From Candidatus Woesearchaeota archaeon (GTDB taxonomy: Archaea; Nanobdellota; Nanobdellia; Woesearchaeales; JAGVYF01): 64,000 nucleotides of DNA. The position numbers and the translations under genes were made by a program. This document shows positions 3,382-59,071 of this stretch, in pieces; position 1 is the stretch's first letter; each line of letters opens with the position of its first letter. The stretch spans positions 5,150-69,149 of the forward strand of contig JAGVYF010000003.1 of the NCBI GenBank assembly GCA_018303425.1. Direction: 5' to 3'. The notes under the pieces were generated by a model. That model worked only from the letters and a program-made list of their open reading frames with translations. It had not been told where the DNA came from and ran no database searches.

Positions 3382-3873
3382 ATGCTGAATGCATTAAATA
3401 TATTAATGCTTGAGATATATTTTATTTTAGGACTTTTATCATTTGCGGGCATAATCCTGGGTCTGATATTAGGAATGATTGCTCCAGAAGAATTAAAACC
3501 TGGAGCTCCATGGTTTATCAAATTAAAAAATACAATATTTACATTATTAATATTAATATTATTATATTACAACATTTATAATCTTATAATAATACCATTA
3601 ATTATTTTCTTAATATTATACTGGTACCGAGGAACTTTAGGCGAAGAATCATATATGCTTGAGTATAGTATGATGGGTTCGCTATTTGGAATGGGATATT
3701 ATACCCCCGCCATACCTGAAATAATTGGATTGATTTTTATATATAAAATTACATCAGGAAGTTTGTTAATATACAAAAATAATAATTTCAATTTTTTAAT
3801 AAAATCAATTTGCTTAAGATTAATATTCTATATTTTGGGATTATTATTACCACTTATGTTTGCGAATGTGTAA
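3382..3873 (+). CDS. Hypothetical polytopic membrane protein
   Basis: 163 aa, very hydrophobic and Ile/Leu-rich. It overlaps the 3' end of carS on the opposite strand by about 27 nt. Confidence 0.3.
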   Translation: MLNALNILMLEIYFILGLLSFAGIILGLILGMIAPEELKPGAPWFIKLKNTIFTLLILILLYYNIYNLIIIPLIIFLILYWYRGTLGEESYMLEYSMMGSLFGMGYYTPAIPEIIGLIFIYKITSGSLLIYKNNNFNFLIKSICLRLIFYILGLLLPLMFANV

Positions 3874-4371
3874 AACAAATCCAACATAGCTTAATAAAAG
3901 TTTAAGAAAATAAGTAAAAACTACCATTAAAACAATCTGCAAATATGTAAATTTAATTATAAGGCTTGAAAATAAAATGGCTCCTAATACCGCATCAATT
4001 TGATCTGCAATAAAAAAATTATGCCCGGGAATAATATTTATTCTCCTCTTAATGAACGATTTAAATAAATCCCCAAACATGGCCCCAGTTGCAAGAAAAA
4101 GACCTAATAACACGCTATAATCCTGATATATGATAATACTGTTGATATTAATAACCTTCTGAAAATAAAACATTATAGTGCCAAATAGAATTGCAACCAA
4201 TATCCCCCTAAATGTTTTATGTGCCCCAAATAAAGAATTGCCCTCCAATTTTATCCCTAAGTCCAAAGGAAATTCTAAAGATTTCAATTTATTCCTAAAT
4301 AATAATGGCATAATATCTGCTATATAAACAGGAAATAAAAAATAAATCAATTTCAGACTTTCAGCTAACAT
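3847..4371 (-). CDS. carS: CDP-archaeol synthase (CDP-2,3-di-O-geranylgeranyl-sn-glycerol synthase)
   Basis: 174 aa with 5 TM. The motif GNSLFGAHKTFRGILVAILFG matches the CarS/DUF46 G-x-x-KT-x-EG signature. Confidence 0.6.
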   Translation of the reverse strand: MLAESLKLIYFLFPVYIADIMPLLFRNKLKSLEFPLDLGIKLEGNSLFGAHKTFRGILVAILFGTIMFYFQKVININSIIIYQDYSVLLGLFLATGAMFGDLFKSFIKRRINIIPGHNFFIADQIDAVLGAILFSSLIIKFTYLQIVLMVVFTYFLKLLLSYVGFVLHIRKHKW

Positions 4372-12333: not shown

Positions 12334-12873
12334 ATGGATACATATAAACTTGACTTTACTATACTAGAACTAGAGATATTTACTTATCTAAGTATTAGAA
12401 CCGGAGAAATGTTTAGCCAGAGAGATATTGCAAAAGCGCTTAAAGTATCTCCAACAGCAGTTTCAAATGCGATAAAGAATCTTACAATAAAAGATTTAGT
12501 AAAATTAAACAAAACAAAAACAATCAATTTTATATCATTTAACAGAGATAACCATAAAGCGATTGAGCTTAAAAAAGTTGAAAATCTAAAACAGATTTAT
12601 ATTTCAGGATTTTCGGATTTTTTGGAAGAAAAACTTGCAGGATCCACAATAATATTATTTGGTTCCTACTCTAGAGGGGAAGACACAAAAACATCAGATA
12701 TAGATATAGCCATAATTGGAAGAAAAGAAAAAACGCTTAGTCTAGAAAAGTTTGAAAAAACTCTCAATAGAAAGATAAATTTAAATTTTTATGATTCGTT
12801 AAGGGGGATACACAAACATTTAAAAAATAACATATTAAATGGCATTATAATACATGGTAGTGTTGAACTATAA
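12334..12873 (+). CDS. Minimal nucleotidyltransferase (MNT/MntA-like antitoxin) with N-terminal wHTH
   Basis: GSYSRGEDTKTSDIDIAI is the GS-x-DxD NTase signature. Confidence 0.65.
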   Translation: MDTYKLDFTILELEIFTYLSIRTGEMFSQRDIAKALKVSPTAVSNAIKNLTIKDLVKLNKTKTINFISFNRDNHKAIELKKVENLKQIYISGFSDFLEEKLAGSTIILFGSYSRGEDTKTSDIDIAIIGRKEKTLSLEKFEKTLNRKINLNFYDSLRGIHKHLKNNILNGIIIHGSVEL

Positions 12874-13304
12874 TGGTTATAAAAATATTTAAAGAATACA
12901 TTAATGAAGGAACCATCCGACAAATTTCACCAGATAAGGAAAGAGCACAAGATTTATTTCTCGAATCCGAAAGAAAGTTCAATCTTTTAGAAGAAACCAT
13001 ACAAAAGATGGACATACGTGATGATAATGCAAATGATTATGTTGAATATTGTTACAACATAATAATGTTCTTAATAAGAGCAAAAATGCTGGAAAAAGGT
13101 TATATAAGTTCAGGACAAGGAGCTCATGAAGCAGAAGTAGCTTTTGCAAGAAATTTTAAATTAAATGATTCAGAGGTTCGACTTTTAAACCAACTAAGAT
13201 ATTTCAGGAATGGTATTCTTTACTATGGCAAAAGGTTTGATAAAGAATATGCAGAAAAGATTATTAAATTTACACACAAGATATACCAATTGATTAAAAA
13301 ATAG
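12873..13304 (+). CDS. HEPN-domain protein (HepT-like toxin partner of the MNT)
   Basis: Overlaps the MNT stop by 1 nt. 143 aa, helical. A paralogue downstream shares the LRYFRNG-LYYG block. Confidence 0.5.
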   Translation: MVIKIFKEYINEGTIRQISPDKERAQDLFLESERKFNLLEETIQKMDIRDDNANDYVEYCYNIIMFLIRAKMLEKGYISSGQGAHEAEVAFARNFKLNDSEVRLLNQLRYFRNGILYYGKRFDKEYAEKIIKFTHKIYQLIKK

Positions 13305-13636: not shown

Positions 13637-14665
13637 CTAAAGAAATAAACGCCAATAATTGCTTACAAATTCATTGGCAATAAATTCAACAAGTTCTTTG
13701 TATTTTACAACATCAAAATCATCAATAGTAAGCTTATCTGCTTGATTAAGAGCAGAAAGATATTTTGCTCTTGTTTTTTGGCTTATTATAATTGGAGGAT
13801 AACCATGACTCAAAAATATATAATTCATCAAGATTCTGCCTGTTCTTCCATTTCCATCCATAAAAGGATGAATTTTTTCAAATTTATGATGAAATATTGC
13901 AGCAAGAACAAGTGGGTGTAATTTTGATTTATAATCACTATAACGCTTCAAAAGCATTTTCATATCAGCAAACACATAAGGTGAAGGAGTTGATTCAAAT
14001 TGAGACTTAAATACCCTCACGTCTGTAGTTCTATAACCTATCCTGCTATCAATATTTTTTAAAAGTGACTGATGAATTTCACAAATAAATTCATGATTAA
14101 TATCTTTAGGAAGATTTTCAAAAAGATTCAAAAATACAGTTTCAGTATTTTGCAAATCATATACTTCTCTTAGAGTCTTATCCTTTGGAGTTAAATGTTC
14201 TAAAAATAGTTTTTTTGCCTCACGCAAAGTAATTGTATTTCCTTCTATAGATGCAGTATTAAATGCAAATTCAATAACAAAATTTTTTATTATTTCAGCT
14301 TTAGTCTCTTTATCCAATTTTTCAAAAACACTATGCCAATGGAGCTTGCATGCCTCAATATTTTCCAGCAAATGTTTTGACAGATATGAGTTTGATTTAA
14401 ACTTCATTGACTTTACTTTTTCAATAAACCTGTTTGATTCGATAAATCGGTTTAAAGTTTTATATGCCTTTCTAATATCTGAAGAATATTTCGCAGGCAT
14501 TTTTGAAAGTTTTTCTTTAACTTCATCAATATTTAAACCCAAATAAACAATATCTTTAGTTACGAGACGTTTTCCTTGTTTTAAAGAAGCTCTCAAATAG
14601 TAATAGGATCTTCCCCCTTTAATTTTTACATAAATATATACCATTATATTCAAAAATTTAAACAA
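13637..14665 (-). CDS. Fic/DOC family protein (putative AMPylase)
   Basis: Canonical Fic motif HPFMDGNGRTGRILMNY. Confidence 0.8.
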   Translation of the reverse strand: MFKFLNIMVYIYVKIKGGRSYYYLRASLKQGKRLVTKDIVYLGLNIDEVKEKLSKMPAKYSSDIRKAYKTLNRFIESNRFIEKVKSMKFKSNSYLSKHLLENIEACKLHWHSVFEKLDKETKAEIIKNFVIEFAFNTASIEGNTITLREAKKLFLEHLTPKDKTLREVYDLQNTETVFLNLFENLPKDINHEFICEIHQSLLKNIDSRIGYRTTDVRVFKSQFESTPSPYVFADMKMLLKRYSDYKSKLHPLVLAAIFHHKFEKIHPFMDGNGRTGRILMNYIFLSHGYPPIIISQKTRAKYLSALNQADKLTIDDFDVVKYKELVEFIANEFVSNYWRLFL

Positions 14666-14930: not shown

Positions 14931-15446
14931 TTGCAACAAGAAATACTAAGACTTCTATTCATTAAATCGGGCAAGTCCCTAAATCAATTACAAATTGCCC
15001 GTTTTTTAAAAGTCAGCCAACCAGCAATTATGAAATCCTTACCCAAATTAGGACAAGAAGAATATATTAAGTCTTCTCAAGATAAAGAAACTAAAAGATG
15101 GTCAATTGGATTAAACCGAAATAATCCCCAAATTATGCAATTAAAAAAAATTGACAATTTGAGATTAATTTACGAATCAAATCTGGCAGATTATTTAGAA
15201 GAAAAATTTGCTGAAACAACAATTATCTTATTTGGAAGTTACTCAAGAGGAGAAGATATAATCAATTCTGATATTGATATTGCAATAATTGGTAGAAAAG
15301 ATAAATTGATTGACTTATCGAGTTATGAAAACATTTTAGAACGAAAAATCAATATAAATTGTTATGACTCATTGAAAAATATAAATAAACACTTAAAAGA
15401 AAATTTATTCAATGGCATTTTACTTGCAGGCGGGTTTGAGATATGA
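14931..15446 (+). CDS. Minimal nucleotidyltransferase (MNT) with N-terminal wHTH; paralogue of 12334..12873
   Basis: GSYSRGEDIINSDIDIAI. It aligns with the first MNT over its whole length. Confidence 0.65.
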   Translation: MQQEILRLLFIKSGKSLNQLQIARFLKVSQPAIMKSLPKLGQEEYIKSSQDKETKRWSIGLNRNNPQIMQLKKIDNLRLIYESNLADYLEEKFAETTIILFGSYSRGEDIINSDIDIAIIGRKDKLIDLSSYENILERKININCYDSLKNINKHLKENLFNGILLAGGFEI

Positions 15447-26152: not shown

Positions 26153-27286
26153 TTAACCTAGTACTTTCATAAAATCAGTTTCTTCTTCTTCACATTTAAC
26201 TTTGGTTACGGCGCTAAAAAAATCTTCTTTTCCAACTTTGCCCCGATTATCACGAATAGCGAAATATCCTGCTTCAGTACATACAGATTTAATCTCTGCG
26301 CCTGAAAATCCATTCATTAACATCGCAATTTCGGCAAGATCCACAGACTTATGTAATTTGATATTCTTTGCATGAATCTTTAATATTTCATATACCCCAG
26401 CATCATCTGGATTAGGAACCTCAATTAACCTGTCAAGTCTTCCTGGACGAAGAATTGCCGGATCAAGAATATCCATCCTATTGGTGCACCCTATAACTTT
26501 CACATTACCTAAATTTTTAAACCCGTCAAGTTCAGCTAAAAACTGCATAAATGTTCTTTGTACTTCTCTTTCCCCGGAGGTACCAAGCTCAACCCTCGTA
26601 GCAGCTAATGCATCAATTTCATCAATAAATATAATTGTTGGTGCTTTCTCTTTTGCTAACTGAAATATTTCTTTCACAAGCTTAGCTCCTTCACCAATAA
26701 ACTTTTGCACTAATTCAGAACCCACAATTTCAATAAATGTTGAATTTGTACTTGCAGCAACTGCTTTAGCAAGTAAAGTTTTCCCTGTTCCGGGAGGGCC
26801 ATAAAGTAATATTCCTTTAGGCGGCGTTATACCTATTTTCTTAAAAAGCTCAGGTTTTAACAACGGCAATTCAATAACTTCTTTAACTTCTCTTACTTCA
26901 TTATATAATCCCCCAACTTCATCCCACGAAGTTGTTGGTTTTTCCATAATAACAAATTTTTCTACATTAAACTTTTTATTATTGTCAAGCTTGCTTATAA
27001 CAGTTAAATTCTTTTGCTCAACTAAAACCGAATCACCAGATAAAAGTTTGGGGCAATCAGATGCAATATTGACATGAAACATATTGCCGTTAGGAATTTT
27101 AATAACTGCATTGCTGCCGTTAATCTCCCTAATTTCACAAACCATTAAAGGATTTTGTCTATATCTATCTAATTCATTTTTCAACTGAGAAACAGTTTCT
27201 CGTAAAATTCTGTTTTCTTGTTCTAACTGATTAGTTTCAGCAGTATATGTATACATGATTTTTGAAATTTCATCTTGAGTTGTCAT
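26153..27286 (-). CDS. pan: Proteasome-activating nucleotidase (AAA+ ATPase)
   Basis: N-terminal coiled coil and OB segment. A single AAA module with GPPGTGKTLLAKAVA, DEIDA and the second region of homology. Confidence 0.8.
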   Translation of the reverse strand: MTTQDEISKIMYTYTAETNQLEQENRILRETVSQLKNELDRYRQNPLMVCEIREINGSNAVIKIPNGNMFHVNIASDCPKLLSGDSVLVEQKNLTVISKLDNNKKFNVEKFVIMEKPTTSWDEVGGLYNEVREVKEVIELPLLKPELFKKIGITPPKGILLYGPPGTGKTLLAKAVAASTNSTFIEIVGSELVQKFIGEGAKLVKEIFQLAKEKAPTIIFIDEIDALAATRVELGTSGEREVQRTFMQFLAELDGFKNLGNVKVIGCTNRMDILDPAILRPGRLDRLIEVPNPDDAGVYEILKIHAKNIKLHKSVDLAEIAMLMNGFSGAEIKSVCTEAGYFAIRDNRGKVGKEDFFSAVTKVKCEEEETDFMKVLG

Positions 27287-30006: not shown

Positions 30007-30134
30007 CATATAATGGGCGCTGTCCAGAGTCATTCAGATTTAGCTATAACTGCAAAAACGTTCTTGGCTACTTTATGTTTCAAATTATATACTAATATAC
30101 AGACAATGAACTTTCTGGACAGCGCCATATAATG
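30007..30134. repeat. Palindromic IR element (family C): ATATAATGGGCGCTGTCCAGA ... TCTGGACAGCGCCATATAAT flanking an ~85-bp AT-rich loop
   Basis: 13-bp perfect core IR. A half copy lies at 53704..53744. Both sit just upstream of plus-strand gene promoters. Confidence 0.5.
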
Positions 30135-30204
30135 ACAAATTATATAAACATAATAAGCGATTAACTCAATTGATATACCAATATTATAAGAGAGGAAATT
30201 TTCA

Positions 30205-31860
30205 ATGCTTAATCAGATAAGGTATGATATAAAAAATATCAACAGGTTTAAACAAATTTTGTCAGTATTTTTTGCAGAAGGTTTTGGGTATTTAATTGAT
30301 GAAACTCCATTAAAAACATATATTCCTTATCACGAAAGAATTAAAAAAACAATTTTAAAAGATAGTGAGAATTCATTTCCAATAAGAATACGAAAAGCAT
30401 TTGAGAAATTAGGTCCAACATTTATCAAACTCGGCCAAATCTTAAGTTTAAGGCCAGATTTAATTCCTCCAGAATATGTCATAGAATTTGAAAAAATGCT
30501 TGATAAAGTTCCAACTTTCTCAGGTAAAGCGGCTATAAAGATAATTGAAACTGAATTAAAAAAACCCATTAAAGAAATTTTTTTATCATTTGATGAAACC
30601 CCATTTGCTTCTGCATCCCTTGCGCAAGTGCATAGAGCTGTGCTTTTTAATAAAAAAGAGGTTGCTGTTAAAGTCCAACGTCCCGGTATTGAAGAGATCA
30701 TGAAAAATGATTTAGAAATAATGAAATATATAGCAAGAATTCTTGATAAACATTTCAAAAAATATAATTTTCATATTACAACTATAATCACTGAATTTTC
30801 TCGCTGGACTGAATCAGAATTAAATTTTTACGTAGAAGCGATTAATGCCGAAAGATTTAGGGAAAATTTCAAAAATAGTAAATTAGTTTATATCCCTGAA
30901 ATCTATAAAAAATATACAACCCCTAAAGTTTTAACAAGCGAATTATTAAAAGGTATAAAACTAAATGATATAAATAATCCTAAATACAAAAATATAGACA
31001 AAACAAAGATAATTAATAATGGATTTGAAGCATTAATACTGCAAGTTTTTAAATACGGATTTTTTCATGCAGACCCGCATCCCGGAAATTTTGTAGTATT
31101 AAAAGATAATAGATTGGGAATTGTAGATTTTGGGATAGTGGGTGAGTTTGATAAAAGATTAAAACATAAAACTTTAAAAATCTATAATGCCATCATAAAT
31201 CAAGATTTAAAAAATATTGCCTCCGGAATTCTCTCGTTAGACCCTCGAAATAATCAAATTGACATAAATGAATTTGAAAGAGATTTACGTTATGTGATTT
31301 TTCCTATGCAACTGGACTCATTGAATCATACTCAAATAACTGGATCAATATTAAATATATTAAATATTGCGATGAAACATCAGTTAAAAATACCAATAGA
31401 TTTCGTATTATTTGGAAAAACCTTAATGACCATTGAAGGAATTGCAGTTAAATTTGCTCCGGATTTTAAAATAAAAAAAGAAAGTGTAAGGATAATAAAC
31501 AAACTATTGCATAATAATAATTGGCCTAAAAAAATTATAGAAGAAATCAAAAACCATTCTTTTGACCTCGTTGAAATGGAAGATGGGTTGCCCGATTATA
31601 CCAGAGATGTGCTTGAACGTTTAAGATCAGGTAAAATCAATGTTGACCTTGAAAATAATAATGTTGAAAGTTTTGTTAATGAATTCGAAAAATTTTCAGG
31701 AAATCTGTCTTTTGGCATAATTATTGGGGCATTAGTTATTGGTTCATCACTAGTTTTTACATTAGAAGCCTTCAGATATTTAGCAGTAATAGGATACTCA
31801 TTATCGCTGATTTTAAGCATGTGGCTAATTAAACGAACAATCTTTACCGGTAATGAATAA
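30205..31860 (+). CDS. ABC1/UbiB family atypical kinase
   Basis: ASASLAQVHRA, EVAVKVQRPG and HADPHPGN motifs. C-terminal TM helix. Confidence 0.7.
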   Translation: MLNQIRYDIKNINRFKQILSVFFAEGFGYLIDETPLKTYIPYHERIKKTILKDSENSFPIRIRKAFEKLGPTFIKLGQILSLRPDLIPPEYVIEFEKMLDKVPTFSGKAAIKIIETELKKPIKEIFLSFDETPFASASLAQVHRAVLFNKKEVAVKVQRPGIEEIMKNDLEIMKYIARILDKHFKKYNFHITTIITEFSRWTESELNFYVEAINAERFRENFKNSKLVYIPEIYKKYTTPKVLTSELLKGIKLNDINNPKYKNIDKTKIINNGFEALILQVFKYGFFHADPHPGNFVVLKDNRLGIVDFGIVGEFDKRLKHKTLKIYNAIINQDLKNIASGILSLDPRNNQIDINEFERDLRYVIFPMQLDSLNHTQITGSILNILNIAMKHQLKIPIDFVLFGKTLMTIEGIAVKFAPDFKIKKESVRIINKLLHNNNWPKKIIEEIKNHSFDLVEMEDGLPDYTRDVLERLRSGKINVDLENNNVESFVNEFEKFSGNLSFGIIIGALVIGSSLVFTLEAFRYLAVIGYSLSLILSMWLIKRTIFTGNE

Positions 31861-37182: not shown

Positions 37183-37926
37183 ATGAACATTAAAGATATT
37201 ACAATTCTGACAACATTATTATTAATTTTTTCAAATTTGGTAATTGCAGCTGAAGATATTACCGGCGAAGCAACTTATGGAACAATTGAATTTAGCAAAC
37301 ACTGGGAAAAATTATCAGCTGTTGAGCCAACAAAATTCCTTGCTAATAATGAAGAATTTAACATTAGAGAGATTTGGATTAATGTCAATACAGAAACTGA
37401 AAATTCCGTATTCAAACTTATAAAACTACCCTACAGACCTGTAACAACCCCAATACTGAATACAGAAAGCTATCAATTTTATGAATTCAAAACATCTAAT
37501 ATTTTAAAAAGCAATACTAGAACGTCAAAAATAATATTTAGAGTTAAAAAAGAATGGGTTGAAAATAATTCTATTGATGAAGATAATATAAGATTAAATG
37601 TTTTCAAAGACATTGATTGGATAAAATTATCTACAAAAAAAAGAATCTCAATAAATGAAGAATTTTATGAATTTGAATCTGATGTCAATGAATTTTTGCA
37701 ATATTATGCAATTTCAGCTCCAAAAAAAGTATTTTATGATGAAAAAACAACTTCTGAAAACCCTGAAACTATTAAAAAAACAGAAACCATATCTGAAAAA
37801 CCCGCGAAATTAGAAACCTTCGATAAGGCAGGCTGGATAATATCATTTCTGCTTTTGTTAACATTGATTTATATTTTTTACCAAAAAAACAATAAAATCA
37901 ATCATCAAAAACATAAACTTAACTAA
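37183..37926 (+). CDS. Secreted protein with N-terminal signal peptide and C-terminal TM anchor
   Basis: SD AAGGTGGA precedes the ATG. The N-terminal hydrophobic segment ends in AAEDI. The C-terminus WIISFLLLLTLIYIFY is followed by basic residues. Confidence 0.45.
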   Translation: MNIKDITILTTLLLIFSNLVIAAEDITGEATYGTIEFSKHWEKLSAVEPTKFLANNEEFNIREIWINVNTETENSVFKLIKLPYRPVTTPILNTESYQFYEFKTSNILKSNTRTSKIIFRVKKEWVENNSIDEDNIRLNVFKDIDWIKLSTKKRISINEEFYEFESDVNEFLQYYAISAPKKVFYDEKTTSENPETIKKTETISEKPAKLETFDKAGWIISFLLLLTLIYIFYQKNNKINHQKHKLN

Positions 37927-38030
37927 ACCGCATTAATGTTACTTTTGTATCTGCGCAGCGGCACATTACTAAATTTATTACTACCGTAACATAATTACGG
38001 TTTAGAACACTACTATAACATAATTAATGT
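37917..38030. repeat. Repeat family D element with internal IR (CGCATTAATGTTAC ... GTAACATAATTAATG) and ACCGTAA-CATAA-TTACGGT hairpin
   Basis: Its 5' 47 nt recur at 51051..51097 (AACTAAACCGCATTAATGTTACTTTTGTATCTG). Confidence 0.4.
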
Positions 38031-41871: not shown

Positions 41872-42495
41872 ATGGAAAAACTAGAAATTAAAAGTTGGAT
41901 AGATCTCGGATATTTACATACCCGGATAATTTTCGAAATAGTGGGCAAACCAAAAGAACATATAGAAGAAACGATTAAGAAATATGTTGAAACTATTACA
42001 AAAAGCACCACAATTAAAATGATTTCAAAAGAAATTGCAGAGGCAAAAGAACAGGAAATTCCAACAGAAACAGGCGGAGAGGAAAAAGAAAAAATATGGA
42101 GTACTTTTGCCGAAATAGAATTCCTTATTAAAGGTGTTTCAAACCTTGTAGGATTTTGCTTTGATTACATGCCCGCTTCAGTTGAAATCCTGGGTCCTGA
42201 TAAAATCATATTTAATCACCATACAATTACAGATTTTATTAATGATCTACAAGCGAAACTCCATAAGATGGATGCTGTATTAAAAAATCAAAATAACGAA
42301 AATATATTCCTAAAAAAGAACATGCAAACAACAATACTAAACCTTTTACTGGTTTCATTGCATAATAAAAAATTAAAAGAAGAAGAATTATCAAAACTTT
42401 GTGGAATCCCTGAAGAAGGTTTAAAACCATTCATTGAAATATTATTAAAAGACAATAAGATTAAAAAAGAAGAAGAGTATTATTATTTATCATAA
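41872..42495 (+). CDS. Hypothetical protein; by position possibly a divergent kleisin (ScpA-like)
   Basis: Lies immediately upstream of scpB. The C-terminus is winged-helix-like. No EGPLD motif is present. Confidence 0.3.
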   Translation: MEKLEIKSWIDLGYLHTRIIFEIVGKPKEHIEETIKKYVETITKSTTIKMISKEIAEAKEQEIPTETGGEEKEKIWSTFAEIEFLIKGVSNLVGFCFDYMPASVEILGPDKIIFNHHTITDFINDLQAKLHKMDAVLKNQNNENIFLKKNMQTTILNLLLVSLHNKKLKEEELSKLCGIPEEGLKPFIEILLKDNKIKKEEEYYYLS

Positions 42496-42496
42496 A

Positions 42497-43177
42497 ATGA
42501 CACAAACCCCTAAAAAAAAAGTGGAAGCAGTATTATTTACAATCGGCAAACACATATCTTTAAATGAAATCAAAAAATTGTCTGGAATTACTGAAGATAG
42601 CCTTCTTAACCAATACCTTAATGAGTTAAAGGAAGAATATGAAAAAAATGATTCATCGCTCCGTCTTATCCAAGATAACGAATTTTGGAAAATGGGAGTT
42701 AAAGAAGAATATTGCGATATCGTAGAAAATATTGTTAGCGATACAGAGCTAAGTAAAAGTGTAATGGAAACCCTAGGGGTTATAGCATGGAAACATCCCG
42801 CGCTCCAAGCTGATGTCGTACACATTAGAACAAATAAAGCATATGACGACATAAAAGAACTTGAAGAGTTAGGCTTTATTTCAAGAATTAAATCTGGAAG
42901 AACCAAAAAAATAAATTTAACGGAAAAATTCTTTAATTATTTTGATTTACCTACACATAAAAAAGAAAAAGAAGTTCTAAAAAATTTAGTCCCTGAAAAT
43001 ATTAAGGATAAAATAGATGAAACTGAGATTGAAATTCATGAAGGAGAAAAAGCGGTTGAAAATCATAAAATTAAGTCAGAACTGCAAAAACAAAAGCAGG
43101 AACAGCTTAAAACTTTTAATGATGCTGAAAAAGAGATTCATCTTGCAATTGAATCCATAAAAGAAGAACGAACCTAA
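42497..43177 (+). CDS. scpB: Segregation and condensation protein B
   Basis: N-terminal EAVLFTIGKHISLNEIKKL and a second wHTH LGVIAWKHPALQADVVHIR, the tandem-winged-helix ScpB pattern. Confidence 0.6.
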   Translation: MTQTPKKKVEAVLFTIGKHISLNEIKKLSGITEDSLLNQYLNELKEEYEKNDSSLRLIQDNEFWKMGVKEEYCDIVENIVSDTELSKSVMETLGVIAWKHPALQADVVHIRTNKAYDDIKELEELGFISRIKSGRTKKINLTEKFFNYFDLPTHKKEKEVLKNLVPENIKDKIDETEIEIHEGEKAVENHKIKSELQKQKQEQLKTFNDAEKEIHLAIESIKEERT

Positions 43178-49400: not shown

Positions 49401-49886
49401 ATGAGTGTTTATGATAAATATCTTCGAGAAGCTTCTAGGACATTTAAAATTGCAGACCACATGGTTTCGGTTACTTACCCGTTGGTAAAGGACACCAAAC
49501 TATTACTGGCAGTTCTAGAAAATTTAAATTTAACCCTAAAAAACTCAATTGCCGCCCTAGTCTATTATGATAGACACTACAAACGTTTACCCCCATTCCA
49601 AGACTCGTTCGAATCGCAATTTAATGTATTCAGAGCTAAAAGTGTTGAAAGGTATAAAATTGACAAATCATATATAACACTAATCCAAAATATTGAATCG
49701 CTAATCAAGGATCATAAAGCAAGTCCAATGGAATTTATCCGAAAAGACAAATTTGTTATTTGTTCAGATAACTATAACATTAAAACATTTTCACTCGAAA
49801 ATATCCGTGAATATGTCTCAAAAATAAAAGAATTTAAGGATAAAATATGTTTAATAATAAAAGAAAATGAAAGAATCTCTCCGTGA
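49401..49886 (+). CDS. Hypothetical protein, paralogue A of a tandem 161-aa pair
   Basis: LREASRTFKIADHMVSVTYPLVKD aligns with LRDALEEIKRVDHLIYVSLKY of the next ORF. Confidence 0.4.
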   Translation: MSVYDKYLREASRTFKIADHMVSVTYPLVKDTKLLLAVLENLNLTLKNSIAALVYYDRHYKRLPPFQDSFESQFNVFRAKSVERYKIDKSYITLIQNIESLIKDHKASPMEFIRKDKFVICSDNYNIKTFSLENIREYVSKIKEFKDKICLIIKENERISP

Positions 49887-50352
49887 TGCATTAGAAGAAA
49901 TAAAAAGAGTCGACCATTTGATTTATGTTAGTTTAAAATATACCCGAACGGTTGATGTAATAAAAAGCATTGTACAAAGAATGGTTGATGCAATGGATTT
50001 TCTAATAATGGCTAATCTTTTAACTGAAAAAGAATCCACCGCCGAAATTTTCCCGCAACATGCATCTGAAAGAGCAAGGTTACTAAAGTCTAACTTCCCG
50101 CAAAATAACCAATTACAAGATTATTTGGAATTTTATTTGTTGCTTAGAAAAGTATTAAGAGCAAAATATACTGCTTCACAAGAATTTAGAAGACATGTTA
50201 CAATGTCAGTAAATTTCACTGATGCAGATGAAAATTTAGATATAAATATTGATTTAATCTATGAATATTACGAAAAATTAAAAAACTTCTTTGATTATAC
50301 ATATCAATTAGTTGAAAATGCAGAAAAAACAAACGGCAAAGAAACGCCATAA
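49867..50352 (+). CDS. Hypothetical protein, paralogue B of the tandem pair
   Basis: Overlaps paralogue A by 20 nt and the downstream membrane ORF by 41 nt. Confidence 0.4.
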   Translation: MKESLRDALEEIKRVDHLIYVSLKYTRTVDVIKSIVQRMVDAMDFLIMANLLTEKESTAEIFPQHASERARLLKSNFPQNNQLQDYLEFYLLLRKVLRAKYTASQEFRRHVTMSVNFTDADENLDINIDLIYEYYEKLKNFFDYTYQLVENAEKTNGKETP

Positions 50353-50821
50353 TCAAAAAATAAGTAAAAGTTACAAACCACACTTTAATGTGCCATTAAG
50401 GCAAATAAATATGCCTCAGAGAAATAATGTTACATTTTGGATGGCTTTAGTAGTACTTTTGGTCTCAAATTTTACAATTTCAATTGTGCTTATTCCGTTT
50501 TTAATCATTCTTGAAAAAATGCCGTTATATACACTAATATTTTTAATTGGAATAATGTTTGGTTCATTATTTAAACTAACCTTAGACTCAATAAATAATT
50601 TAGAAAAAAAACATCAGAATATAGCAACATTTTTTATCCCTGCGCTTGCCATTGTAAATATAGCAGTTATTACCACGCTTAGCAATAAAATGGCTGAATT
50701 ACTTGAACTTAGCATAGCACATAATCCACCTATAATTGGATTAACATATGCATTAGCTTTTATTACGCCGTTCATTTACAAATCAATTCTAGATAAATTA
50801 AACTTTTTGATTTATAAATAA
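50312..50821 (+). CDS. Hypothetical membrane protein (4 TM), third gene of the operon
   Basis: Basic N-terminus followed by four hydrophobic helices. Confidence 0.4.
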   Translation: MKMQKKQTAKKRHNQKISKSYKPHFNVPLRQINMPQRNNVTFWMALVVLLVSNFTISIVLIPFLIILEKMPLYTLIFLIGIMFGSLFKLTLDSINNLEKKHQNIATFFIPALAIVNIAVITTLSNKMAELLELSIAHNPPIIGLTYALAFITPFIYKSILDKLNFLIYK

Positions 50822-50826
50822 AAAAA

Positions 50827-50990
50827 GGGCAGCGAGAGGGAGTCGAACCCTCCTCACAGGATTTCTGCAATTTGCCTTTAACCATCAGAAATGAGCTAAA
50901 ATAAAGTTTTTGCTCGCTGATTTTGGTCAAGCTTTTTGCTTGGCAAAAAGGTTGCCACAGTCCCATATTCTACCGATGAACTACCGCCGC
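50827..50990 (-). tRNA. tRNA-His (GTG) with encoded G-1 and a ~93-nt canonical intron
   Basis: Minus strand reads G-GCGGCGG-TA-GTTC-ATCGGTA-GAAT-A-TGGGA-CTGTGG[93 nt]A-TCCTG-TGAG-GAGGG-TTCGACT-CCCTC-TCGCTGC-C. Discriminator C73 pairs with G-1. A TATA box lies at about +51015..51025. Confidence 0.6.
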
Positions 50991-51050
50991 CATATATTTT
51001 TAAGTGGTTTTATCTCCTTTATAAACCTTATTATAAATAATTATAAAATG

Positions 51051-51097
51051 AACTAAACCGCATTAATGTTACTTTTGTATCTGTGTAGTGGCATGAA
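51051..51097. repeat. Repeat family D partial copy
   Basis: AACTAAACCGCATTAATGTTACTTTTGTATCTGTGTAGTGGCA matches 37917..37962. Confidence 0.4.
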
Positions 51098-51400
51098 ACC
51101 CGCCGTCTCCATCCCTCTTTATGCGAAAGAAATAATTTGATCTACTAGAAAAAATTGATTGAATATTTAATCATCTAACGGGCTTTTAATATTGCGAATA
51201 TTCTTGTTTGAAACTTTAGTATATATTAGAGTGGTACTTATATCCGAAACCTTAGGAAGATAAATTAACTCAAGTAGAAGGTTGTAGTTTAAATGCTGAA
51301 CCAGCCGATTATGGTTCATTAATATAATGCAAAGGCTACATCAAACATAAATTAATTAATTATAGAAACCTTTATATAATAGTTATATCTAGATTAAACT

Positions 51401-52021
51401 ATGAGAAGGAGAGAACTTCTGCAAAAACTAGCTGGAATTCAAACTATGGGTTCGGTTATGGATATACTTAAAGTAGATAAAAGAATGGCAATTTATTACA
51501 TACACCGCCTTAGAAAAGAAGGTTATGTTAAAACCAAGAGACAGAGCAATAATCGAAGAGTTTACAATATCTCACTTGAGAATAAATTAGGTGGCAAGAG
51601 CTATTACGAGATTATTAATCAACATTCCCCCATTAAAATCTCAACGCCAGTAATCTATAGAATATACGGTAAAGAACCAAGCCTAGAAGAAACCTTAATT
51701 TATGCAATAAAAACTAAAAGTATCAGGACTATTCTTGCGTCATTGGCTTTATTTGGAAAAATTATTAATTGGGTAGAATTATATAATATAGCTAAAAAGA
51801 ATAATATTGAAAGACAAGTTGGGGCATTATATGATCTTGCTCGCCAGATTATGAAGGTGAGAAAAATGTCTCCTAAATTTAGAAGTAGTACTCTCCCAAA
51901 AGAAAAATATAAGTTTGAATATGTTGTTCCAAAATTAAAATCTAGAGATTTTACTGGAATAGAAAAAATATGGAAAATTTATCTTCCGTTTAACAAGAAA
52001 GATTTGGAGGAGTACAAATGA
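51401..52021 (+). CDS. AbiEi-like antitoxin / transcriptional regulator (N-terminal wHTH)
   Basis: The N-terminal 60 aa are wHTH. 206 aa. The stop overlaps the next start (ATGA). Confidence 0.45.
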   Translation: MRRRELLQKLAGIQTMGSVMDILKVDKRMAIYYIHRLRKEGYVKTKRQSNNRRVYNISLENKLGGKSYYEIINQHSPIKISTPVIYRIYGKEPSLEETLIYAIKTKSIRTILASLALFGKIINWVELYNIAKKNNIERQVGALYDLARQIMKVRKMSPKFRSSTLPKEKYKFEYVVPKLKSRDFTGIEKIWKIYLPFNKKDLEEYK

Positions 52022-52686
52022 TTACTATAGACCAACAGCAAAAATTATTATTAAATGTTGCTAGAAGACTTAGCAAGAAAATAACTATTTACGCCATTGG
52101 CGGAACTGCCATGATGTTCCTTGGTTTTAAAGATGCAACTTTAGATATTGATCTAGTCTTTAAGAATGAAAAAGACCGCGCTGTATTCAAAGAAGCTGTA
52201 AAATCTTTAGGTTATTTAGAAATGGACGCTATTAAGATTTACGGAGTAAAACGAAATACACCTGAGATGTTTAAGCTTAACGATGAACGCTTTGATTTAT
52301 TTGTAGTAGAAGTAGTTGATTTTATCTTTTCAGAAAATATGAAACAAAGAACCGAACAAACGCATCAGTTCGGAGAAACACTCATTCTAAAAATAGCCAA
52401 TCCCCATGATATTATCCTTATGAAATGTGCTACTGATCGTTTAAAAGACAAAGACGATGCAAGAAGAATTATTAATTCCACAAAAATAAATTGGGATACC
52501 ATTATAGGAGAAGCTAAAAACCAAATGGAATTGGGAAAAGAAAGAGCAGTATTTGATTTAACTTGTTTTTTAGAAGATCTTAGAAAAATGATGGGAGTAA
52601 ATATTCCTTCAGAAATTATGGACAAACTCTTTGATTTAATTGAAAGACAGGTAAAAGAAAAAAAGAAAAAGGCTAGAGAAAATTAA
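52018..52686 (+). CDS. AbiEii-like nucleotidyltransferase toxin (DUF1814-type)
   Basis: IYAIGGTAMMFLGFKDATLDIDLV is the GGTAL...DID motif of AbiEii/AbiGii NTases. Confidence 0.5.
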   Translation: MITIDQQQKLLLNVARRLSKKITIYAIGGTAMMFLGFKDATLDIDLVFKNEKDRAVFKEAVKSLGYLEMDAIKIYGVKRNTPEMFKLNDERFDLFVVEVVDFIFSENMKQRTEQTHQFGETLILKIANPHDIILMKCATDRLKDKDDARRIINSTKINWDTIIGEAKNQMELGKERAVFDLTCFLEDLRKMMGVNIPSEIMDKLFDLIERQVKEKKKKAREN

Positions 52687-52930
52687 CTTCCGATTCCCCC
52701 CGCGAAACGACTAACTGAAAATTACCCCTTGATACTTATTCTTGATGCACTGAGAAATTAAAGATTTCTGGTGTCCCAAAAAGCTTTGCTTTTTGAGGAG
52801 CTCACTGTGTTCGCTTGATTGAATACACTCCTGAAATTACTTTAATTTTTTGCTATTCGAGCATCATTGCACTAAAATCTCGTCCTCATTTCATTCAGAG
52901 AAACTAACAGCGATCGCGATGTTATACGCA

Positions 52931-52967
52931 ATTTCTTTCCACTAAATCAAAAATAAGGCACCTGGCC
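52931..52967. repeat. Left inverted repeat of the toxin-antitoxin cassette (TTTCTTTCCACTAA...AAGGCACCTGGCC)
   Basis: Reverse complement of 53565..53595: 14 + 12 bp matching around a short gap. Confidence 0.55.
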
Positions 52968-53015
52968 AAAAGGTTTATTAATAAGTTCTACTTATATGGA
53001 ATTAGGTTAACTAAT

Positions 53016-53255
53016 ATGGTACAAGCACTTGTAGAAATTAATGATAATACGAATCGTGTGTTAAATGTTGTTAAGGCAAAATTCGGACTTAAGGATAAAG
53101 GTAAGGCTATCGAATTTGTTGTTTCTGAATTTATTGAGTTTGAGAACGAGCCTGAATTAGCACCTGGTTTTATTCAAAAGATTGAAGAAATTAAGAAACA
53201 AAAAAGCATTAAAGTAACTGATTTTGCAAAACGATATGGACTTAAAAGTTCATAA
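53016..53255 (+). CDS. Putative antitoxin of the RelE/ParE-type pair
   Basis: 79 aa. Lies 14 nt upstream of the toxin gene. Confidence 0.45.
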   Translation: MVQALVEINDNTNRVLNVVKAKFGLKDKGKAIEFVVSEFIEFENEPELAPGFIQKIEEIKKQKSIKVTDFAKRYGLKSS

Positions 53256-53269
53256 AAAAGAGTTGATAA

Positions 53270-53548
53270 TTGATATATGATCTAAAGATTAAACCTGAAA
53301 TTGATAAGATATTCTCAAAACTAGCAAAGAAGAATCCTCAGCAATTGATGATTATTGACAAGAAAATAAATGAAATTCGAGAAGATCCTTCGGGTTATAA
53401 GTTCTTAAGAAAGCCTCTTAATGGTTTTAATAGAGTCCATATCGATAAGCACTTCGTCCTTATATTTCAAGTAAACCATCATAAAAAAGTGGTAGAAATT
53501 TACTATTTCGACCATCACGATTCTGTATACGCTTGGAGACCGAAGTAA
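53270..53548 (+). CDS. RelE/ParE-family toxin
   Basis: LRKPLNGFNRVHIDKHFVLIFQVNHHKKVVEIYYFDHHDSVY matches the RelE/ParE C-terminal signature. Confidence 0.6.
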   Translation: MIYDLKIKPEIDKIFSKLAKKNPQQLMIIDKKINEIREDPSGYKFLRKPLNGFNRVHIDKHFVLIFQVNHHKKVVEIYYFDHHDSVYAWRPK

Positions 53549-53564
53549 TTTTAGGGCCAGGTGC

Positions 53565-53595
53565 CTTTAAGTTAGTGGAAAGAAACTTCTTCGCT
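53565..53595. repeat. Right inverted repeat of the toxin-antitoxin cassette (GGCCAGGTGCCTT...TTAGTGGAAAGAAA)
   Basis: See the left IR. Confidence 0.55.
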
Positions 53596-53749
53596 TCGCT
53601 CAGACCGCGCTGCGCTTTCGGCTTCGCCTCAGGGAGCATAACAGAGCTTAACCGACTACGAAATCTTGCAGGTTTCCCCACCCAAATTTATTTTTAAAAA
53701 TTAACATACAGACAATAAAATTTTTGGACAGCGCCCATTTAACAATAAC

Positions 53750-53758
53750 TTTATAAAT
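53750..53758 (+). promoter_or_regulatory. TATA box (TTTATAAAT) 27 nt upstream of the ileS ATG (leaderless mRNA likely)
   Basis: Spacing is consistent with a transcription start at or next to the ATG. Preceded by the family C half-repeat TGGACAGCGCC. Confidence 0.3.
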
Positions 53759-53780
53759 GCGTTATCTATTCTGAAAATAC

Positions 53781-58722: not shown

Positions 58723-58780
58723 AACTTAAATCTATTATTTAGTTAATTTTTTAAATGAAGACTAGTTCTACTCTTATAAT

Positions 58781-58864
58781 GCGGTGTTGCCAGAGTGGTC
58801 AAATGGGATGGACTCAAGATCCATTAGCTTAGTGCTTACACAGGTTCGAGCCCTGTACGCCGCA
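58781..58864 (+). tRNA. tRNA-Leu (CAA), type II with long variable arm, no intron
   Basis: Acceptor GCGGTGT/ACGCCGC. Anticodon stem ATGGA/TCCAT with loop CTCAAGA. Variable arm TAGCTTAGTGCTTACA. T-arm ACAGG-TTCGAGC-CCTGT. A TATA box lies about 26 nt upstream. Confidence 0.75.
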
Positions 58865-59071
58865 TTTTATTTTCTCTAATTTAAAATGAAGTGAACATAG
58901 CGAACGCAGGTCTTATTGTTTTTAATGGGCTTTTTTTAAAAGATCGGCTCAATACACCCCATTTTTTATGGCTTAAAGATAGAATGAACATAACTTTTAA
59001 AATAATACCAAATTATAATAAATTACACATAGTAACCTTTAAAAATACATTTCTATTGTCCTTATTCTATT

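Follow-up and report, generated by a model that had tools for sequence, protein, structure and literature searches.

We analysed a 64,000-nucleotide stretch of DNA from a Candidatus Woesearchaeota archaeon (NCBI GenBank assembly GCA_018303425.1, contig JAGVYF010000003.1, positions 5,150 to 69,149 of the forward strand; hereafter the window) and found that two overlapping genes within it, here called A and B, appear to form an ancient, single-copy and strongly selected module of Woesearchaeota-type DPANN archaea. Gene A encodes a winged helix-turn-helix (wHTH) protein and gene B a minimal nucleotidyltransferase (NTase) whose nearest characterised kind is the AbiEii/MenT group. Taken as a whole package, the pair may be a MenAT/AbiE-like NTase switch that is autoregulated, has been retained since ancient times and works with a new partner family, a reading in which our confidence is about evenly balanced. 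The two genes and a Shine-Dalgarno-like site lie as follows (positions are those of the window):

Gene A, 51401 to 52021, plus strand: 206 amino acids, a wHTH at about residues 1-60 followed by an all-helical C-terminal domain; predicted regulator and neutraliser.
Gene B, 52018 to 52686, plus strand: 222 amino acids, a DUF6036 minimal nucleotidyltransferase with a helical C-terminal domain.
GGAGG Shine-Dalgarno-like site, 52006 to 52010, plus strand: 7 nt 5' of the B ATG and within the 3' end of A; a putative function, read from the letters.

The two open reading frames (ORFs) are on the same strand and share a 4-nt ATGA overlap, suggesting that A and B are a translationally coupled two-gene operon. 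An earlier sequence-only reading of the window had described a wHTH protein followed, with this overlap, by an NTase, and our coordinates and geometry agree with it. Both are real genes rather than chance ORFs, because their homologues are found in the hundreds with constant length, their dN/dS is low (median 0.11 for A and 0.17 for B) and, of the 76 orthologous pairs that are complete, 68 retain the ATGA overlap and five more overlap by 14 nt. A tblastn search within the window found no paralogue of either gene. One ORF pair of similar size (41872-43177) was considered as a possible A-B paralogue and rejected (BLASTP E > 2); it is ScpA/ScpB-like by eye. An 86-aa antisense ORF within B (52365-52625, minus strand) has tblastn matches in 74 loci, which arise because B is conserved and give no evidence for a gene.

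To follow the pair across genomes, we scanned one-genome-per-species contigs and obtained 159 matching stretches, of which 80 loci (L006-L085) were inspected. Each of the 80 came from a different assembly, with one locus per genome, and the genomes are labelled Woesearchaeota, Nanoarchaeota or Pacearchaeota apart from a few 'uncultured Methanosarcinales' or 'Aenigmatarchaeota', which we suspect to be placeholder or binning names. In each of the 85 loci examined, the gene immediately upstream of B was an A orthologue. The identities of A and B to their orthologues drop together, from 88/90% to 41/52%, and their pairwise distances correlate (r = 0.85). Fourfold-degenerate sites are approximately saturated in genome pairs whose proteins are 60-80% identical (identity 0.31-0.36 against 0.28 expected), so the conservation reflects long-term purifying selection and the alternative that recent horizontal spread produced the high identity was rejected. 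Further, neighbouring genes common to the same genome pairs were less conserved than A-B in 91% of 66 comparisons. Their mean identity was 48% against 67% for A-B (Wilcoxon p = 8e-9 for the 52 comparisons where A-B were less than 80% identical), a gap that would be exaggerated if some of the 'orthologues' in this set are paralogues. These data show that A-B behaves like a core gene and not like a mobile abortive-infection or toxin-antitoxin (TA) cassette.

Our search of Pfam placed B in PF19502 DUF6036, a 'nucleotidyltransferase of unknown function' (28.3 bits against a cut-off of 23.6, E 1.8e-6). The same family was matched by 39 of 39 diverse B relatives, only four of which weakly matched PF08843 AbiEii (best E 5.8e-4); PF19502 is also precomputed for most B homologues, several of which NCBI names 'DUF6036 family nucleotidyltransferase'. 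B itself had no match to PF08843 in Pfam even at E<=10. NCBIfam gave no meaningful family for A or B and PHROGs gave no match for either. In PADLOC, B was unmatched and A had only weak (E >= 0.007) matches to generic wHTH regulators, with no defence effector.

The fold of B points to the MenT toxins. When the AlphaFold2 model of B, which has a predicted local distance difference test score (pLDDT) of 91, was compared with the PDB by Foldseek, the top match was MenT1 (8an5_B, E 5e-6, TM-scores 0.49/0.57), followed by ANT(2'')-Ia (E 4e-5), JHP933, TM1012 and MenT3 (8xhr, E 1e-2). PDB sequence searches with B alone or with a profile of close orthologues returned nothing, and when a broad family profile that included distant relatives was used, a single PDB chain, that of MenT1, was matched at E<=10 (E 0.019). 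The PDB entry of MenT1 was itself deposited as an 'AbiEii/AbiGii toxin family protein', and in the profile alignment T41, D43, D45 and K136 of B are equivalent to T39, D41, D43 and K137 of MenT1. The sequence-only reading had assigned B to AbiEii; the kinship stands, in that MenT1 is both the best fold match and the only sequence match in the PDB, and the family itself does not, given DUF6036 and the lack of a PF08843 match. The residues concerned fall in two segments:

B residues 28-45, 52099 to 52152, plus strand: G28-G29 (motif I), K38, and the T41-L-D43-I-D45 loop (motif II with the candidate phospho-acceptor Thr).
B residues 136-147, 52423 to 52458, plus strand: K136...R141 (motif III-like) and K143-D144-K-D-D147 (motif IV, +DxxD).

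AbiEii proteins are defined by motifs I/II of the form hG[G/S]x15DhD with an Arg in motif II, a motif III with Lys...Arg and a motif IV of the form +DxxD (PMC3985639). B shows the Pol-beta pattern of motifs I and II, hG[G/S]...DhD, as I27-G28-G29 and D43-I-D45, while the K-to-R spacing in its motif III is 5, shorter than the 7 of KLxAaxxR. The NTase motif noticed from the letters is present in B as YAIGGTAMMFLGFKDATLDIDLVF, and motifs I-IV are not degenerate: G28, G29, K38 and T41, as well as K136, R141, K143, D144 and D147, were present in 72 of 72 species, and D43 and D45 in 71 of 72. B also carries R91/D93 and D131, likewise conserved in the 72 species and in 48 distant relatives, with D93 invariant or nearly so in both sets. 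In the distant relatives the motif I-II residues were kept in 47-48 of 48, K136, R141, D144 and D147 likewise in 47-48, and T41 in all 48, and their loop is mostly T-[K/R]-D-h-D, like that of MenT1. The known phospho-acceptors of this group are T39 in MenT1 and S78 in MenT3 (PMC11375011) and T65 in AbiEii (bioRxiv 10.64898/2026.01.19.700257), each corresponding to a Ser/Thr two residues before DxD; B has such a residue in T41-x-D43-x-D45, where phosphorylation itself is only predicted. Two B orthologues have an altered catalytic DxD in an otherwise intact protein (D45G in L025, D43G in L034) and may be inactivated copies or sequencing errors. Given that its relatives all match DUF6036 and few match AbiEii, and that the catalytic residues are kept, we suggest that B is a member, catalytically intact as judged by residues, of a sister family of the MenT/AbiEii toxins that lies outside DUF1814.

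The same structural search offers a different reading, in which B would be a non-toxic small-molecule nucleotidylyltransferase, similar to ANT(2'') and acting on an antibiotic or metabolite, and A would be a transcriptional regulator that possibly senses this molecule. In its favor, ANT(2'')-Ia is the second-best structural match, 2 of 39 relatives weakly match Pfam Aminoglyc_resit, the strict conservation and single copy number suit a metabolic or protective enzyme, and a wHTH protein with operator-like boxes (described below) suits an ordinary repressor. However, MenT1 is the only solved relative found by sequence, and the MenT/AbiEii residue set, regulatory Thr included, is matched by the T-[K/R]-D-x-D loop, K136 and DxxD. 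The translational coupling, the one-to-one partner and the fusions of A-like and NTase domains further suggest protein-protein control rather than mere transcriptional control. On this evidence we find the small-molecule reading unlikely.

Protein A gave only sub-threshold wHTH matches in Pfam and no AbiEi family. The sequence-only reading had paired B with an AbiEi-type regulator, and this half of the assignment finds no backing: the window protein matched no AbiEi profile, 7 of 72 A orthologues matched AbiEi_4 weakly and through the generic wHTH, and fold searches with A did not return AbiEi/Rv2827c. Rather, the relatives of B suggested a different identity for A. In a search of 1.84 billion representative proteins at E<=1e-3, only 630 B relatives were found, among them fusion proteins of about 550 aa that by Pfam consist of a wHTH, a second HTH, PF24271 (HVO_2833_C) and DUF6036. 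These fusions come from Altiarchaeales, Diapherotrites, Micrarchaeota and Aenigmarchaeota. When a 72-species profile of the A C-terminal domain, which is predicted to be all-helical, was compared by hhalign with the middle domain of the fusions, the match had a probability of 88.8% (E 2.5e-6, score 41.6), and 20 column-shuffled control profiles reached a maximum score of 18.7. At the centre of the alignment is S-[LI]-E-E-x-L-[IV]-[YH]-A, and the match defines the following feature in A:

HVO_2833_C-like core of A, residues 78-137, 51632 to 51811, plus strand: contains the near-invariant S-L-E-E-T-L-I-Y-A, located by hhalign.

The link depends on profile-profile comparison, as neither A nor its 71 orthologues matched PF24271 directly in Pfam, and full-length A gave only a weak hhalign match to a single fusion sequence, significance being reached only with the 72-species C-terminal profile. 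The wHTH of A also aligns with the N-terminal wHTH of the fusions. Because both its C-terminal domain and its wHTH align with fusion domains, A together with B appears to be the split form of a module that is found as a single polypeptide in other DPANN archaea. In one Woesearchaeota metagenome-assembled genome (MAG; locus L045, JACPBU010000181.1, 826-2022), a single 398-aa ORF consists of A residues 1-201 and B from residue 21, joined by a clean in-frame deletion; this is either a natural fusion like the other fused forms in DPANN archaea or an assembly artefact. Upstream of an Altiarchaeales fusion gene that starts at 4001 (locus L086), we observed three tandem copies of the 16-nt AAAACAAAACTGTTTC at about 3803-3855, the third with one change. 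These repeats are about 150-200 nt from the gene, and the fused form may thus have operators that are arranged differently.

The region upstream of A carries a module that is shared by nearly all genomes, aGAAAnn-TTTATATA-(~9-10 nt)-gCTAsATTwAAC-(0-3 nt)-ATG. In the window, this region contains the following elements:

Proximal promoter module, 51364 to 51399, plus strand: AGAAAC at 51364-51369, resembling a transcription factor B recognition element, TATA element TTTATATA at 51371-51378, a 10-nt spacer and the box CTAGATTAAAC at 51389-51399.
Distal promoter-like module, 51319 to 51346, plus strand: TATA-like TTAATATAAT at 51319-51328, a 7-nt spacer and the box CTACATCAAAC at 51336-51346.
Imperfect palindrome, 51379 to 51402, no strand assigned: 24 bp with 12-nt arms, ATAGTTATATCT and AGATTAAACTAT, 83% complementary and 0 nt apart, from a repeat search.

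The proximal box ends 1 nt before the A ATG, and the palindrome spans both this box and the A start codon, making it a candidate operator for a dimeric wHTH protein. In archaea, the TATA element is usually about 26 nt from the transcription start. With this spacing, transcription would start at or next to the A ATG, and the A-B mRNA is probably leaderless.

To see how widely the module occurs, an nhmmer profile of positions -40 to -1 was searched over 752 kb. It recovered the 64 proximal sites from which it was built, including 51362-51399 of the window at E 1e-5, together with 27 further same-strand sites in other genomes whose 3' ends are about 53-62 nt upstream of the ATG; only two unrelated places were found at E<0.01. 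The window's own distal module was missed by nhmmer, being too degenerate, and is recognised through pattern and position only. When anchored by position, a second TATA element was found 51-54 nt upstream of the proximal one in 39 of 71 orthologous loci (at 52 nt in 22 and at 53 nt in 14), so that the two modules are some five helical turns, or about 52 nt, apart. Over the 9 nt that follow the TATA element, matches were found at 4.69 of 9 positions between the two modules of one genome, compared with 3.49 of 9 between genomes, and none of 5000 permutations reached the observed value. The box pattern CTASATYWAAC occurs three times in the window against 0.30 expected. The only match besides the distal and proximal boxes, CTACATTAAAC at 26962-26972 (plus strand), is inside a minus-strand ORF (26153-27286) and may be either chance or a further binding site. 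On the simplest reading, the boxes would be operators for the winged helix of A, placed where archaeal repressors block polymerase recruitment, and would provide negative autoregulation as in AbiE.

Regulation could also run in another direction. In a split one-component regulator, an NTase-like B would be a sensory or modifying subunit that gates the wHTH protein A, by nucleotidylylation or otherwise, the complex would control other genes and B would be no toxin. The single-chain wHTH-wHTH-HVO_2833_C-DUF6036 proteins in several archaeal lineages fit such a scheme, as do the in-frame A-B fusion in one Woesearchaeota MAG and the core-like conservation. The invariance of the full catalytic residue set argues instead for a real transferase with a conserved substrate. 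In addition, across 752 kb the box module is essentially confined to the DNA upstream of the pair itself, which gives no hint of a wider regulon in the sequence covered. We therefore consider a split regulator rather improbable, and return to the interpretation of A-B as an NTase switch.

From the gene structure, family, fold and motif equivalence, pairing, conservation and cis-element observed here, we propose by analogy a substrate, a toxicity, its neutralisation by A, a phosphorylation, a DNA-binding activity and a biological role. B would add nucleotides to RNA 3' ends in an NTP-dependent reaction, with tRNA acceptor ends the probable target by analogy with MenT. A would act at two levels: as a repressor of the operon, by binding the promoter-embedded CTAsATYwAAC boxes arranged in tandem about 52 nt apart, and as a partner protein that binds B and switches it off. 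MenA1, MenA3 and AbiEi provoke auto-phosphorylation of their toxins, and the shut-off of B would probably involve a similar A-provoked auto-phosphorylation, of the invariant Thr41 in the T-x-D-x-D loop. The core-gene behavior of A-B favors a role as an endogenous growth or translation switch rather than in phage abortive infection. A more detailed version, which we put forward only tentatively and which is more likely wrong than right, is that A-B is a domesticated, vertically inherited MenT-like tRNA 3'-end switch in normal DPANN physiology, serving for example in a reversible translation shut-down when cells are detached from their host. In that version the wHTH + HVO_2833_C proteins would be a hitherto unrecognised antitoxin-like family that represses through co-evolving tandem operators and triggers Thr41 auto-phosphorylation, and the ~550-aa fusions would be the same switch in cis.

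Several observations weigh against the switch and against its parts. Fused single-chain relatives, strict vertical conservation and a single copy are atypical of TA pairs, and B may therefore not be toxic. The likeness of B to MenT1 is moderate (TM-score about 0.5), with the small-molecule NTase ANT(2'')-Ia nearly equal, and the absence of a PF08843 match counts on the same side. Motifs I and II of B are separated by 13 residues (T30..L42) and not 15, and its invariant basic residue, five residues before D43, is a Lys (K38) and not an Arg. A shows no likeness to known antitoxins beyond the generic wHTH, and its structure model has a pLDDT of 69 overall, with an only moderately confident C-terminal domain. 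For the control region, it is possible that the tandem modules are two plain promoters, and the within-genome likeness of the spacers could come from duplication or gene conversion rather than from recognition by a protein. Finally, DUF6036 and HVO_2833 are mentioned in no paper that our literature search found.

Abortive infection, the biology expected from the sequence-only reading, receives no support from the genomic surroundings of a pair that is single-copy, anciently retained and constrained. Across loci the neighbours of A-B are mostly housekeeping genes, such as phenylalanyl-tRNA synthetase beta subunit (PheRS-beta), other aminoacyl-tRNA synthetases (aaRS), RtcB, GatB, CTP synthase, SRP54 and FtsZ, and few minimal nucleotidyltransferase (MNT) or MazE genes are beside the pair. 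The 25 Pfam families that occur most often near A-B include no integrase or transposase, and in a scan of viral contigs none encoded an A-B gene. It would thus seem highly improbable that A-B is a canonical AbiEi/AbiEii (type IV/VII TA) system, that is, a mobile phage-defence cassette in which a COG5340 antitoxin neutralises a DUF1814 toxin. In its favor are the shared architecture (a wHTH protein of about 200 aa with a C-terminal domain, whose gene overlaps that of the NTase behind it), the AbiEii-type motifs and MenT1-like fold of B, and the TA-type genes close by in the window (a ParE-like pair, Fic and wHTH-MNT/HEPN). Against it, the window proteins match neither PF08843 nor an AbiEi HMM, B has no PADLOC match, the C-terminal domain of A is HVO_2833_C-like and not AbiEi-like, and a single-copy pair, anciently retained under strong purifying selection among housekeeping neighbours and absent from viral contigs and PHROGs, does not fit such a cassette. 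Strict membership in AbiE fails for want of any PF08843, AbiEi family or PADLOC defence match. The sequence-only reading is thus partly supported: it was correct on superfamily and architecture, incorrect on the family and probably also on the biology.

The genes flanking A-B vary between genomes and none of the other loci shares flanking synteny with the window, and the gene neighbourhood therefore gives no functional clue. Among the 130 immediate neighbours in loci L006-L085 were PheRS-beta (four times), class II aaRS (twice), RtcB (twice), GatB/E (twice) and a class I aaRS. Within 8 kb in the window are isoleucyl-tRNA synthetase (IleRS), another aaRS, tRNA-Leu, RNase P RNA and a further tRNA, and the archaeal nascent polypeptide-associated complex is also encoded nearby; such genes, together with a 100% protein match named Candidatus Woesearchaeota, identify the host as an AT-rich DPANN archaeon. 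Genes for tRNAs and translation may be mildly over-represented at most, and some of the cases are not independent. The archaeal RNase P RNA (RF00373; 48331-48645, plus strand) matches over the full model length with 81.2 bits (E 8e-22); the family's gathering score, 84, is slightly higher, and an Rfam annotation run with default settings would therefore overlook this RNA. An Rfam tRNA match at 50828-50990 (minus strand, 35.9 bits) spans 163 nt and for this reason probably contains an intron; ARAGORN reported only tRNA-Leu(CAA) at 58780-58865 in the window and not this tRNA.

Between B and IleRS lies a ParE-like pair, 53016-53255 (a weak DUF2683 match) and 53270-53548 (ParE_toxin, 21.3 bits, narrowly under the cut-off). 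On either side of the pair is one arm of a 20-nt inverted repeat (52932-52951 and 53566-53585, 90% complementary), which BLAST extends to about 36 nt at 80%. The pair looks like a small inserted cassette and was not found beside A-B in other genomes. The intergenic regions 52687-53015 and 53549-53780 had no Rfam match and no significant fold (z -1.55 and +0.86). The window contains other TA-type genes. At 12334-12873 a minimal NTase is fused to a MarR-wHTH, and the next gene (12873-13304) encodes a HEPN protein; another wHTH-MNT fusion is at 14931-15446, and 13637-14665 on the minus strand encodes a Fic/DOC protein; the wHTH-MNT fusion is an unusual architecture in itself. Two short intergenic repeats, 51043-51093 with 37913-37963 (51 nt, 90% identity) and 53694-53757 upstream of IleRS with 30085-30148 upstream of ORF 30205-31860 (65 nt, 78% identity), may represent promoters or leaders that are held in common. 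A further two ORFs of 161 aa each (49401-49886 and 49867-50352), adjacent and overlapping, had no Pfam match; their N-termini are alike by eye, which would fit tandem paralogues, and after them comes a predicted 169-aa membrane protein of no family (50312-50821).

Among characterised systems, MenAT1 of Mycobacterium tuberculosis (MenT1 Rv0078A with MenA1) is close to A-B in its NTase. MenT1 and B are similar in size (about 190-220 aa) and have in common the residue set GG...T-[K/R]-D-x-D...K...DxxD; B belongs to Pfam DUF6036 and not to DUF1814. The partners are unalike: MenA1 is a 7.4-kDa helix-only antitoxin that has no wHTH and no autoregulation (PMC11375011), whereas the partner of B is a 206-aa wHTH + HVO_2833_C protein. 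In contrast to MenAT1, A-B has an archaeal host, in which it is a single-copy pair with vertical conservation. In gene layout, A-B more closely resembles AbiE (Streptococcus agalactiae / Lactococcus) and MenAT3, which likewise consist of two overlapping genes, the upstream one encoding a wHTH with a C-terminal domain (about 200 aa) and the other an NTase in which motifs I-IV are present and DxD is preceded, at a distance of two residues, by Thr/Ser. Both AbiE and A-B have repeats in the promoter, which in A-B may point to autoregulation; in AbiE they are adjacent inverted repeats and in A-B they are direct, whole-promoter modules about 52 nt apart. Compared with AbiE and MenAT3, B is about 70 aa shorter and differs in its motif I-II spacing (13 against 15) and in having Lys38 in place of Arg; the C-terminal domain of A, predicted all-helical, matches HVO_2833_C and not AbiEi; and unlike AbiE, A-B is away from mobile elements and defence islands.

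The ~550-aa wHTH-wHTH-HVO_2833_C-DUF6036 fusions belong to the same NTase family as B and have identical invariant residues. They are single polypeptides with two wHTH domains, compared with the split form with one wHTH in the window, and their upstream regions lack the CTAsATYwAAC module of A-B. MNT-HEPN systems, one of which is in the window (12334-13304), are like A-B in that a small protein accompanies a minimal Pol-beta NTase. The NTase of MNT-HEPN systems acts as antitoxin by modifying the toxin, a HEPN RNase. A-B, on the other hand, has no HEPN partner, and B is from a different NTase family (DUF6036) with MenT-type motifs III and IV.

PF19502 DUF6036 has been a family with no described function, partner or literature, for which we here observe a conserved wHTH/HVO_2833_C partner and a MenT-type Thr loop. 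In bacteria, the MenT/AbiEii nucleotidyltransferases are known toxins, belonging to TA and phage-defence systems that are mobile. DUF6036 appears to be their sister family, with the same catalytic and regulatory residues but tied to a new partner domain, and it is retained under strong selection, as a single-copy operon or a fused protein, in heavily reduced DPANN genomes. Its tandem promoter-operator modules with within-genome spacer co-variation may offer a compact archaeal system for the study of regulator-operator co-evolution. If B does act on tRNA, a toxin-type enzyme would have become a conserved endogenous regulator, antitoxin-induced auto-phosphorylation as in MenAT and AbiE would extend to archaea, and two Pfam families, DUF6036 and HVO_2833_C, would gain a function.

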